Notes: a model not told the origin generated them from the sequence alone. A stretch of DNA of 8,953 bases from a virus (IMGVR_UViG_2778261177_000008), one strand, 5' to 3'. Counted from the first letter of the stretch, positions 1-3,214 are shown. Translations and numbers: made by a program.

Positions 1-438
1 TTCACGCAAAGACTTATTGATAAATCCGTGATTGAACGCAGCAGCAAGACGGCTGGCGGTATAGTTAATCCCCTCGTTGCGTGCTTCCGCACGAATTTCA
101 GCCAGAAAAGCATCGGTGGCTGGGGTGTCAACACGGATACTGTCGCGCAAGATGAAAAATGCATTGAGCATCCCAGTCTCCGGCACTTCATCCTGATACT
201 TCTCATACGTATCAAGAGCCTTCATCATCTCAGGTCCGAATGGTTGAGGGTGCGCAGATTTCAGCCCCGCATTCTCCGCTGCCAGCGCATTAGCACGCAC
301 CAGTTGCACTTCCAGTTGCGTTGCCAAATCGCTGATCAGCTTTGCCACACTGCGCATATCAACGGCACCACATTCTGCTTTCAGTTCCGAAGCCATCTCA
401 TGCCCGGCGGCAACTAACCCTTTGATATTACTTTCCAT
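1..438 (-). CDS. Hypothetical phage protein, partial (3' end beyond window)
   Basis: Minus-strand ORF with ATG at 438-436 and an SD-like GAGGG 5-6 nt upstream. It is open in frame to position 1 (146 codons; N-terminus MESNIKGLVAAGHEMASELKAEC..., last residues ...NHGFINKSLRE). It was absent from the ORF track because no stop lies in the window; the listed plus-strand ORF 28..417 is its shadow. No family recognised. Confidence 0.5.
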   Translation of the reverse strand, partial: MESNIKGLVAAGHEMASELKAECGAVDMRSVAKLISDLATQLEVQLVRANALAAENAGLKSAHPQPFGPEMMKALDTYEKYQDEVPETGMLNAFFILRDSIRVDTPATDAFLAEIRAEARNEGINYTASRLAAAFNHGFINKSLRE

Positions 439-499
439 CTTTACCCTCGCTTATCCACATAACTTATTGATTACATTGATAACTAAAAAGATCGTCGAT

Positions 500-964: not shown

Positions 965-1741
965 TTACTTGATAAATCCTGCCGCCTTTCCCCGCCTGTA
1001 TTCCTCCATCAGCCACTGCGCCGGTGTTATTCCCCCAAGGGTGGCGGCGTTAGGCATGCACCCGAAACTTCGCCATGGTGGATGGTAAACGTCTCTCCCT
1101 GTGTCCGGAGGTGTACTCATGGGTTCTGGCTTTGCCTGTATGCTGATCACCGGATCGGGTATCTGCTGTCCGGAAGCCACCTTTTTCGCCCAATCATCGA
1201 GCAGCCTGCGAGCGTGTTTCTCAACCTCAATCTCGCTAAGCTGGCGCTGATACATTGCACGGCGGGTATCACATACGACCCAGTACATAACCGGATGTCG
1301 CCACGGGAATATTTCGGGACCACCAGGATATAAACTTTTTTCCTTGCTGTACCGGTGAAACTCCGCCATCACATCGTCAATGGTGACGCCAAGAACCATC
1401 TTGCTGTCTTTACACCACTTGATGAATTGCCCTGGCGACGGCCAGAACGGAGATTCACTGGCGCGGGCGTGGCGCATACCAGCGTTAACCTGTTCCATTG
1501 TAGTGATCCCATTCTCCAGAAACGCAAGCATCCATTGCTTACGGAATTCATTAAGTTTGTTCTGCTCCCTTATGGTCGAAACGCTTGCAGGAAATGCAGC
1601 CTGTAACTGGACAAATAGTTCATTGAAAATTCTAGCAACCTGCTCCTTTTTGCCATTGCTGTCACGCCGCTCTTCATGCACAGCAACACCATGCTCACGT
1701 AAGCGATCGTACTCATTGAGAAGTTCTGGAGTTGATTTCAT
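965..1741 (-). CDS. Replication protein P-like (DnaB helicase loader)
   Basis: 258-aa ORF. The segment FPASVSTIREQNKLNEFRKQWMLAFLENGITTMEQVNAGMRHARASESPFWPSPGQFIKWC closely parallels lambda P as I recall it (FPAS...QW.LAF.ENGITTMEQVNAGMR...PF.PSPGQF..WC). SD AAGGGG 6 nt upstream of ATG (1741-1739). Start overlaps the upstream O-like gene by 29 nt. Confidence 0.85.
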   Translation of the reverse strand: MKSTPELLNEYDRLREHGVAVHEERRDSNGKKEQVARIFNELFVQLQAAFPASVSTIREQNKLNEFRKQWMLAFLENGITTMEQVNAGMRHARASESPFWPSPGQFIKWCKDSKMVLGVTIDDVMAEFHRYSKEKSLYPGGPEIFPWRHPVMYWVVCDTRRAMYQRQLSEIEVEKHARRLLDDWAKKVASGQQIPDPVISIQAKPEPMSTPPDTGRDVYHPPWRSFGCMPNAATLGGITPAQWLMEEYRRGKAAGFIK

Positions 1742-2543
1742 CCCACACCCCTTCTATCCAGTCAGTGTTATTCCAGTCAAGCTCATCGCTTTTCCCGGCA
1801 TTTTTTGATTTTCCCCTGATATGATTTACGTGCCTGGCGAATTTTTGTTCCCACTGAACCTGCGTGAACACTTTGCCCTCAGCCATCCAGTAATCCCGGA
1901 ATGCAGCAAGTTCAGCAGGTGTAAATTCCGGTTCCGGCAGGGCCGTTCCCCACAGCGCAGCACGCCGCCGAAAATCTGGCGACGGTAGCCAGCCATCTGT
2001 CATCGGAAATTTCCCGATGGGTTCACTCAGGCCATCCAGAAATTCAGGTTCTGCCACCTGCAACGGCGTACTGTTCGCTTCACTGGTCGGAGCACCCTCG
2101 CGCACGTGCGCTATGTGTGGGGTTTTATATATATCCTCCTCTTCCTCTTCCTCTGGTAACTCCTTTTGTAACGCTGTTGGCGTTACTTTTTGCGTTACTC
2201 GTTTTCGATGCTCTGCCACTCTTCTATTCGTAAGTGCACGTTTTTTCGATGATTCTCCATTGTGTCGCTCAAAGTTTGGAAGAATTAGTTTGCCGTCATG
2301 ATAAGCAAGCCATCCGACGCTAATGAGGGCGTCAGCAAATCCTGTAATAAAAGCGAGTCTATCAAGTACTCCTTTTGTAACGCTGCCAGCGTTACCGTCT
2401 ATTGTTTGCTGGTCAGCCCATGCCCATATACGAACCAGCTTTCCAAGAACAGCATCTGGATCAATACCCAGAATTTCTGCTATCTGAAAAATTTCAGGTT
2501 TATCAGGAGTGATAACTTCAACCTTAATCCAGCTGCTTGCCAT
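1713..2543 (-). CDS. Replication initiator / replisome organizer (O-equivalent) with DnaT-like C-terminal domain
   Basis: ORF track gives 1713..2561 with a GTG start; I prefer ATG at 2543-2541 (MASSWIKV...), which has SD GAGGGG about 6 nt upstream. The C-terminal GKFPMTDGWLPSPDFRRRAALWGTALPEPEFTPAELAAFRDYWMAEGKVFTQVQWEQKFARHV closely matches E. coli DnaT as I recall it ([26 protein letters not shown]...[20 protein letters not shown]). An acidic EEEEEED linker separates the two halves. Sits immediately upstream of the P-like gene, as O does in lambda. Confidence 0.8.
   Translation of the reverse strand: MASSWIKVEVITPDKPEIFQIAEILGIDPDAVLGKLVRIWAWADQQTIDGNAGSVTKGVLDRLAFITGFADALISVGWLAYHDGKLILPNFERHNGESSKKRALTNRRVAEHRKRVTQKVTPTALQKELPEEEEEEDIYKTPHIAHVREGAPTSEANSTPLQVAEPEFLDGLSEPIGKFPMTDGWLPSPDFRRRAALWGTALPEPEFTPAELAAFRDYWMAEGKVFTQVQWEQKFARHVNHIRGKSKNAGKSDELDWNNTDWIEGVWDEINSRTSQ
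2160..2405. repeat. Iteron-like repeats (putative replication origin) inside the O-equivalent gene
   Basis: Two perfect 19-bp palindromes GTAACGC-N5-GCGTTAC at 2168-2186 and 2387-2405, plus an extra GCGTTAC at 2192-2198. Both palindromes sit in a shared 17-bp direct repeat ctccttttgtaacgctg (2160-2176 and 2379-2395). A short AT-rich tract TTTTATATATAT lies at 2123-2134. Confidence 0.6.
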
Positions 2544-2736
2544 AGGTTTCCCCTCTTGCACTCTTTAGTGCACAAGCAAATTCATTACGATGGCGGTTGG
2601 CGCTATTCATTGCACATTCAACACATGTTCCGTTCAGAACATACCTTTCAGAGAGATGGCCGTGACGGCACCGCTTTCCTGTGAAATAGCGATTTAACCC
2701 GGCTTTTGCGGCCTCCATTCTGGTTACTATCTTCAA
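2524..2736 (-). CDS. Small putative zinc-binding protein in the cII-equivalent position
   Basis: 64-70 aa ORF; start is either TTG at 2736-2734 (SD AAGGGG about 8 nt upstream) or ATG at 2718-2716. Cys/His cluster CRHGHLSERYVLNGTCVEC suggests a zinc ribbon. Overlaps the start of the O-like gene by 20 nt. No confident family match. Confidence 0.45.
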   Translation of the reverse strand: MKIVTRMEAAKAGLNRYFTGKRCRHGHLSERYVLNGTCVECAMNSANRHRNEFACALKSARGETYGKQLD

Positions 2737-3140: not shown

Positions 3141-3214
3141 ATAATAAATATTCACCCATAAGGTAACAAAAATCAAGGATAGTTACCTATGAGGTGCATT
3201 TACCTGATGGGTAA
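3141..3214. promoter_or_regulatory. Divergent promoter/operator region (OR-like) between the cro-like and repressor genes
   Basis: Three operator-like palindromes: 3152-3166 (TCACCcataaGGTAA), 3183-3197 (TTACCtatgaGGTGC) and 3200-3214 (TTACCtgatgGGTAA, perfect). Centres are spaced 31 and 17 bp apart. Leftward promoter candidates on the minus strand: -35 TTGATT (plus 3171-3176) or TTGTTA (plus 3164-3169), with -10 TATTAT (plus 3141-3146). The site at 3152-3166 overlaps the -35/spacer. Confidence 0.6.

Follow-up and report, generated by a model that had tools for sequence, protein, structure and literature searches.

The 8,953-nucleotide (nt) viral stretch IMGVR_UViG_2778261177_000008, called here the window and the source of all coordinates given below, encodes a phage replication initiator whose gene contains two perfect copies of the palindrome GTAACGC-N5-GCGTTAC. 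Comparison of sequences indicates that these palindromes are probably binding sites of the initiator itself and constitute, as a bipartite element inside the initiator's own gene, the origin of replication of the phage. The location of an origin inside an initiator gene is a classical principle; what is added concerns scope and architecture, not kind, and the notable properties of the element are its self-encoded bipartite layout, its deep conservation and its clean covariation with the DNA-binding domain of the initiator. No description of this element was found in the accessible literature, and the paper on the genome of phage ZX5, which is 99.7% identical to the window, contains no discussion of an origin.

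Results

Two clusters of half-sites within the initiator gene

The palindrome occurs twice with zero mismatches, as the initial annotation had recorded, at 2168-2186 (site 1, spacer TGTTG) and 2377-2395 (site 2, spacer TGCCA). No further copy is present in the window with up to two mismatches allowed, and the complete 39.5-kb ZX5 genome contains no third palindrome beyond these two places. The expectation is 0.03 copies, with two or more copies found in 0 of 200 dinucleotide-preserving shuffles, and the exact 7-mer half-site occurs six times in the window compared to 0.94 expected, five of the six lying within 2168-2395. An exact 18-mer, ACTCCTTTTGTAACGCTG, is common to 2159-2176 and 2368-2385 and is part of a 28-nt repeat whose copies are 89% identical; the 17-mer reported initially at both sites is indeed there, but the full exact shared stretch is this 18-mer, and the reported distance of 219 base pairs (bp) has to be corrected, the measured start-to-start spacing of sites 1 and 2 being 209 bp. 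Because 209 mod 3 = 2, a single minus-strand open reading frame (ORF) passes through the common sequence in two frames, giving T-A-L-Q-K-E (site 1) and G-S-V-T-K-G (site 2), which confirms the different reading (A-L-Q-K-E versus S-V-T-K-G) pointed out in the initial annotation.

Site 1 belongs to a distal array of four half-sites placed at exact 12-bp steps (2156, 2168, 2180 and 2192), two in each orientation and symmetric about 2177 (Table 1). The one extra half-site noticed earlier is the GCGTTAC at 2192-2198, and the copy with one mismatch, GTAACtC at 2156-2162, had been overlooked; the AT-rich tract reported nearby is also present. The array encodes the linker peptide R-V-T-Q-K-V-T-P-T-A-L-Q-K-E-L-P. 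Site 2 is the proximal palindrome, and in related lineages a full third half-site adjoins it; the window has a degenerate half-site-like sequence beside it.

Across the family, the complete distal element follows the same order on the coding strand, starting with one to three direct half-sites in 11-12 bp steps, read as G-N-A-K peptide repeats, followed by the palindrome, a further GCGTTAC that always supplies A-L-P codons, a homopurine tract of the (GAAGAG)n or (GAGGAA)n type, an AT-rich stretch and, often, a C-run or a GCGCGC-type element. The purine run has a median length of 20 nt across the family versus 7 nt in random 190-nt segments, and its arginine codons are AGA in 97 of 97 cases, whereas outside the run AGA makes up 104 of 1338 in these genes (p 5e-63). 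Just after the purine tract, the minimum GC content of a 20-nt segment has a median of 0.25 across homologues, versus 0.54 for the genes. Together, the homopurine and AT-rich tracts are a candidate DNA-unwinding element. No DnaA box was detected near the sites, the only DnaA-box-like matches being located at 451 and 7108, at chance level.

Two further observations pertain to this part of the element. The homology between the window and phages with another C-terminal domain (BUCT554 and Klebsiella ST11-OXA245phi3.2) stops at the purine/AT tract or, in the coding sense, just past it, between approximately 2100 and 2135, and the conserved origin DNA may serve as a recombination joint for the exchange of C-terminal domains and helicase loaders. 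In several unrelated lineages, the AT-rich tract is followed by the element CCCCCC-TNA-CCCCCC-AA-GGGG(G), which encodes P-P-x-P-P, is capable of forming a C/G hairpin and lies ~20-50 nt past the purine tract (loci L002, L018, L020, L062, L070, L085, L129, L172 and L174); the window has GCGCACGTGCGC in its place.

Table 1. Features of the initiator gene region in the window
Feature	Position	Strand	Description
Lambda P-like helicase-loader gene	965..1741	minus	PF06992, E 5e-55; PHROG 109; overlaps the end of the initiator gene
Initiator gene	1713..2543	minus	276 aa from the ATG at 2543
GC-rich perfect palindrome GCGCACGTGCGC	2100..2111		borders the AT-rich tract
AT-rich tract TTTTATATATAT	2123..2134		12 nt
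Homopurine (coding strand)/homopyrimidine tract	2134..2154		21 nt, (GAGGAA)n, encodes EEEEEE
Distal array	2156..2198		GTAACtC 2156-2162, GTAACGC 2168-2174, GCGTTAC 2180-2186, GCGTTAC 2192-2198
A-rich spacer and degenerate half-site-like GTACTC beside the proximal palindrome	2366..2376		part of the 18-mer common to site 1
Proximal palindrome GTAACGC-TGCCA-GCGTTAC	2377..2395		codons 50-56 (G-N-A-G-S-V-T), N-domain loop

Domain architecture of the initiator

The whole initiator protein matches PHROG 2509, "replication initiation protein", and a hit to the DnaT DNA-binding domain (PF17948, E 1.6e-18) covers its C-terminal part; for the N-terminal 140 residues, neither Pfam nor NCBIfam gave a match. 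An AlphaFold2 model built on 43 homologues contains a winged-helix N-terminal domain (N-domain) at approximately residues 10-118, modelled confidently in blocks with predicted local distance difference test (pLDDT) values of 81-97, with four helices (16-25, 29-46, 57-64, 69-76), a beta hairpin (80-87) and a long helix of basic character (99-118). It is followed by a disordered low-confidence linker at residues ~120-175, with pLDDT below 50 from residue 124, and by a confident DnaT-like C-terminal domain (C-domain) with a single-stranded DNA-binding fold at residues ~178-250. In this model, the codons of the proximal site encode the loop between helices 29-46 and 57-64, and the distal array corresponds to codons ~116-130, at the start of the low-confidence linker.

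Conservation of the palindromes at the DNA level

In total, ~170 homologous loci from several bacterial phyla were compared, 160 of them obtained in two collection scans of bacterial genomes and viral contigs and further phage loci fetched singly. The hosts are Enterobacteriaceae, Pseudomonas, Xanthomonas, Burkholderiales, a Planctomycete (Stieleria), Verrucomicrobia, including an Akkermansia metagenome-assembled genome (MAG), and an Ignavibacteria MAG. Among the sampled loci, the proteins are 43-100% identical to that of the window, and the homologous genes begin at the equivalent ATG. A tblastn search of phage genomes with the N-domain returned 60 records, down to 27% identity, and the N-domain family comprises 7,116 representative clusters (50% identity) at E <= 1e-3 and 4,783 at E <= 1e-10.

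The palindromes were found to be strongly retained in these homologues despite synonymous drift, a comparison that the initial annotation had named as a check of its proposal. In Enterobacter phage BUCT554 and a Klebsiella prophage, both palindromes are retained at ~80-85% nucleotide identity, the proximal one being invariant including its spacer and the distal one having invariant arms and a variable spacer. The proximal palindrome is located at +148 from the ATG in nearly every locus, or at +160/+172 where the loop is longer, and in each such locus a second copy is found at +343 to +393. Among 84 non-redundant loci, the exact half-sites fall almost entirely into four 100-nt bins, with 176 at +100..199, 187 at +300..399, 17 at +400..499 and 28 at -100..-1, and all other bins contain ~1 half-site each across ~5.4 kb per locus. 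The separation of the proximal and distal clusters is 195-237 bp across the family.

The distances between the palindromes group at 198, 207-210, 216-221 and 228-231 bp, with a Rayleigh R of 0.58 at a 10.5-bp period (84 loci). Helical phasing of the two clusters was nevertheless not used as evidence, being inseparable from the 12-nt steps of the repeat unit and from shared ancestry.

Codon usage was analyzed in 89 sequences with pairwise identity below 93%. The codons of the proximal site follow the pattern xGT-AAC-GCx-xxx-xxC-GTT-ACx, with glycine encoded by GGT in 77 of 78 cases (25% elsewhere in the same genes), asparagine by AAC in all 88 (67% elsewhere), serine by AGC in all 70 (28% elsewhere) and valine by GTT in 86 of 89 (34% elsewhere). 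The Fisher p-values of these biases, 7e-15 to 2e-43, overstate independence because the sequences share ancestry, but the contrast with the other wobble positions of the same alignment is independent of this problem: in a profile aligned by codons, only codons 50, 51, 54 and 55 and those for Trp/Met carry more than 1.8 bits of information in the third position, compared to 0.13 and 0.19 bits for the invariant Gly34 and Gly96, respectively.

The amino acids encoded by the site vary only as far as the motif permits. The first residue (G, C or S, all xGT) changes through its first base alone, which lies outside the half-site, and the fifth (S, G, R, T, N or I, all xxC) always retains the final C. 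In the enterobacterial group with a loop longer by four amino acids, the insertion equals exactly one additional half-site unit of 12 nt (GTAACGC at +148 and +160, GCGTTAC at +172), and in one MAG an eight-residue loop insertion is a second whole palindrome. For the distal palindrome, the reading frame is 1 in 64 non-redundant lineages and 0 in 21, the window being among the latter. On the strength of these sequence patterns, namely the frozen wobble bases, the residue changes confined to bases outside the motif and the reading in two frames, the palindromes are conserved as DNA and not through the peptide, and it is the motif that shapes the peptide, not the reverse. The conservation at the DNA level suggested in the initial annotation is thus borne out, by the frozen wobble bases and the two frames as well as by the covariation with the N-domain described below.

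Covariation of the half-sites with the N-domain

In divergent N-domain subfamilies, the architecture of the element is the same and the half-site is switched in both clusters together, giving at least five half-site types. In epsilon15, Klebsiella phage BUCT711, Pseudomonas phage phiPSA1 and Ralstonia phage RPZH3, the half-site is GTCCGC/GCGGAC, with up to four copies at +54..+105 and 2-4 copies at approximately +333..+395, the latter abutting AGAGAAGAGAAGAG. The half-site of Ralstonia phage Raharianne is GTAGAC/GTCTAC, located at +141..+177 and +357..+383; in a Planctomycetales MAG (L046) it is GTTGCGC/GCGCAAC, at +148..+199 and +337..+377, with the loop peptide becoming G-C-A-P-S-A-T; and three other divergent members carry GTCAC-type sites. 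The distal arrays of the epsilon15-type members, Raharianne and L046 abut AGAGAAGAG.

The surroundings of the N-domain and the sites are far more variable. In a survey of 85 non-redundant loci, the downstream gene is P-like in 36, DnaC-like in 13, of an unannotated type encoding a 618-aa protein in 10, or of other kinds; the upstream gene falls into 44 clusters; and the C-domain of the initiator is DnaT-like in 56 loci and belongs elsewhere to at least 10 other types, one of which appears to resemble the lambda O C-domain. In some family members (L057 and L081), the same N-domain and candidate origin are joined not to DnaT but to a C-domain that, as judged by eye, resembles the lambda O C-terminus (...GWAKSVRDMRELDNRDHKEICQLWLWCRKDSF...). 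Across the loci, the N-domain is the sole constant partner of the sites.

Other candidate binders fare poorly. The half-site differs among phages of the same hosts and is identical across phyla, and therefore a host factor is unlikely; the sites also have no DnaA box in their vicinity. A small zinc-ribbon-like protein encoded just upstream of the initiator in the window was rejected as well, being present at only 8 of the 85 non-redundant loci.

Proposed mechanism and alternative explanations

By analogy with lambda O and the plasmid Rep proteins, which are the established models, we infer that the element is bound, looped and unwound and that it supports helicase loading, and hence that it functions as an origin. 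Initiator dimers or larger oligomers would contact the half-sites through their winged-helix N-domains, occupying the distal array at 2156-2198 plus the proximal palindrome at 2377-2395 and possibly bridging both. The distal array would nucleate the complex, and the adjacent purine/AT stretch at 2123-2154 would be stressed and melted. The proximal cluster could join the complex by looping or could add autoregulation, and the DnaT-like C-domain would hold the exposed single strand and/or couple to the complex of the P-like loader with host DnaB, passing DnaB on from that loader. A bolder version, which we put forward only tentatively, is that of an ancient self-contained replicon cassette, in which the codons for the DNA-binding domain and linker of the initiator also spell out its binding sites, firing would require bridging across ~210 bp of the gene itself, and the half-site code (GTAACGC, GTCCGC, GTAGAC, GTTGCGC, GTCAC and others) could be read from the sequence as a natural collection of orthogonal initiator/origin pairs.

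Several other roles of the palindromes have to be weighed against that of an origin. The sites could bind the initiator for autoregulation only, as operators or roadblocks in and before its own gene, with the true origin lying elsewhere. Plasmid Rep proteins use inverted repeats for autorepression, which provides a precedent, the proximal site is early in the coding region, and Rac-like, Serratia and Yersinia relatives carry a third palindrome before the gene. Autoregulation would, however, have no need for the codon-enforced homopurine and AT-rich tracts that are always fused to the distal array; the window has no upstream site, and the whole ZX5 genome offers no other half-site cluster. We consider an exclusively regulatory role unlikely; the two functions are compatible, and autoregulation is plausible as an added role, above all for the third palindrome of those relatives. 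Rather less probable is that the palindromes act as mRNA hairpins, DNA cruciforms or single-strand hairpins, in the control of translation or stability or as a primosome-assembly signal, and not as duplex sites. The array of four half-sites does fold into a nested structure (-13.7 kcal/mol for the sense and -15.4 for the antisense strand, z -4.6 and -5.1), the arms remain complementary through the subfamily changes, and the C-domain has the single-stranded DNA-binding DnaT fold. Yet many lineages carry unpaired direct copies in 11-13 bp phase (three direct and one inverted, one and three, or two separate palindromes), for which a single hairpin does not account, Pseudomonas variants alter the terminal base in one arm only, and what is kept across phyla is the identity of the half-site, beyond mere complementarity; an Rfam search with the element gave no match, so that a known RNA family was discarded.

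It is very improbable that site 1 is the intrinsic terminator of an antisense, plus-strand transcript within the initiator gene. A consensus scan flags the plus strand at 2168-2186, followed by TTTTT, and a T-run follows in many homologues; this run is present because the spacer encodes lysine. The stem is weak (7-8 bp, 4 GC), no promoter-like site is found upstream on the plus strand, site 2 has the same palindrome without a T-run, and a terminator would leave the flanking half-sites, the proximal cluster and the covariation with the N-domain unexplained. Hardly credible at all is the explanation of the repeat as a by-product of conserved peptide motifs (G-N-A-x-S-V-T and the G-N-A-K repeats) or as a recent functionless duplication. 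G-N-A-x-S-V-T is indeed conserved and the linker peptides are repetitive, but the synonymous positions of the half-sites are frozen, residues change via bases outside them, the same DNA is read in two frames, and the motif is kept between proteins sharing 45-50% identity, a level at which the remaining wobble positions are randomised.

A third GTAACGC-N5-GCGTTAC, absent from the window, is found at -32 to -44 from the ATG in Rac-like, Serratia, Yersinia and Pantoea relatives (loci L004, L005, L010, L013, L016-L022 and L118-L164). In these relatives it may act as an operator for autoregulation or as a third site of the origin.

Comparison with known replication systems

The element would work like ori-lambda and the equivalent origins of other lambdoid phages, without being a member of the lambda O/ori family. 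In both, the sites lie within the initiator gene, in codons joining a DNA-binding N-domain to a C-domain; they are repeated, initiator-specific and of dyad symmetry; a purine-biased AT-rich tract comes next on the coding strand, the four lambda iterons being followed by ACAAAAGAAAAAAGAAAAGATTATT on the O coding strand; a gene for a P-type helicase loader is located immediately downstream, though not universally in the family of the window; and the specificity module, composed of the N-domain and the sites, moves as a unit in mosaic exchange. In contrast to the four tandem 18-bp iterons of lambda, the window has 7-bp half-sites arranged as a four-unit array and a separate palindrome 209 bp away, and the sites are split into two clusters ~210 bp apart, one of which falls within the codons for the DNA-binding domain. 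The initiator is also not homologous to lambda O, with no match to PF04492 (Pfam, E <= 0.01) and an hhalign probability of 0.1, and in most members of the family its C-domain is DnaT-like. The parallel to ori-lambda drawn in the initial annotation consequently holds for the layout, that is, the repeats, the purine-biased AT-rich tract, the linker codons and the downstream P-like gene, and needs refinement for the sites, whose 7-bp half-site units stand in two clusters, inverted or direct and phased at 11-13 bp, instead of forming 18-bp tandem iterons. Similarly, the designation of the gene as an O equivalent is appropriate to its position, after a cro-like gene and a small ORF and before the P-like gene, and to its probable role as judged from PHROG 2509, but not in the sense of homology to lambda O.

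Iteron plasmid origins of the RepA/pi/TrfA type consist of 17-22-bp direct repeats in non-coding DNA, usually accompanied by DnaA boxes. They share with the window a winged-helix initiator and short, helically phased cognate sites beside an easily melted region, and in both systems inverted copies could also serve as autoregulatory sites; the sites of the window differ in being coding, mostly in inverted pairs and without a nearby DnaA box. No sequence similarity was found between the initiator of the window and Rep proteins of known structure.

The likeness to E. coli DnaT (primosomal protein I) is restricted to the C-domain, the NF002770 match being limited to residues 171-252 and scoring 92.4 bits versus a cutoff of 201 for the DnaT equivalog; the N-terminal half is a different domain, predicted to be a sequence-specific winged helix. 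The database name "primosomal protein I" is misleading, since only the C-domain matches DnaT.

YdaU (DUF1376) of the E. coli K-12 Rac prophage, associated with oriJ, occupies the same position in the lambdoid early-right operon and has its own repeats inside the gene, but the K-12 protein (b1359) is unrelated (BLASTP E 0.94, hhalign probability 0.09) and its gene has no GTAACGC sites. By comparison, the "ydaU" of GenBank entry MN652886.1 ("phage Rac", L004) belongs to the initiator family of the window and not to that of K-12 ydaU, and the common name conceals that the replication module was exchanged in mosaic fashion. As the MN652886 gene is a mosaic allele of the family and K-12 ydaU is different, the oriJ literature is not applicable here, and K-12 Rac oriJ was rejected as experimental support. 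The K-12 MG1655 ydaU gene (b1359; L170, 3261-3563) itself contains five copies of a 14-nt direct repeat, approximately AAGCAGATGTTCAA, and an 11-nt perfect inverted pair; these internal repeats may be the oriJ iterons.

Implications

If the proposed origin function is correct, sequence alone would suffice to predict the origins of a very large set of temperate phages and of prophages in Proteobacteria, Planctomycetes and Verrucomicrobia, in which the genes of this family are currently named "hypothetical" or, misleadingly, "primosomal protein I". The element would also represent a natural case of overlapping codes, in which wobble positions, loop insertions and the choice of arginine codons are set by function at the DNA level, and, under the cassette reading, protein sequence would be dictated by the requirement for a DNA-binding site, with loop insertions being added half-sites. 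The layout would also explain why specificity domain and sites stay linked in mosaic exchange, the sites being located in the domain's own codons. The co-varying pairs of half-sites and N-domains are candidate orthogonal replicons and a tractable system for the study of winged-helix specificity.

Neighboring genes and other features of the window

Three temperate podoviruses of E. coli, HEMP4, vB_EcoP_ZX5 and TL-2011b, match this region of the window at 97.6-99.8% identity. Upstream of the initiator gene lie a 70-aa ORF, a cro-like gene and a divergent gene for a CI-like repressor. The 70-aa ORF (2524-2736, minus strand) is in the position of cII and overlaps the start of the initiator gene by 20 nt; its product has a CxHGH...CxxC pattern resembling a zinc ribbon, belongs to PHROG 1081 of unknown function without a match in Pfam, and occurs in the closest relatives only.

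The minus strand carries, at 2844-2863 in the gap that separates the 70-aa ORF from the cro-like gene, a strong hairpin of terminator-like form, AGACCGCC-ATCC-GGCGGTCT followed by a T-run, where tR1 would fall in a lambdoid early-right operon. The CI/Cro intergenic region (3152-3212) contains approximately three operator-like copies of ACCCATAAGGTAA / TTACCTGATGGGT, which were considered as instances of the same motif as the palindromes and dismissed, the ACCCATAAGGTAA type being a different sequence. A promoter-like site is found in the same intergenic region on the minus strand, at 3169..3141.

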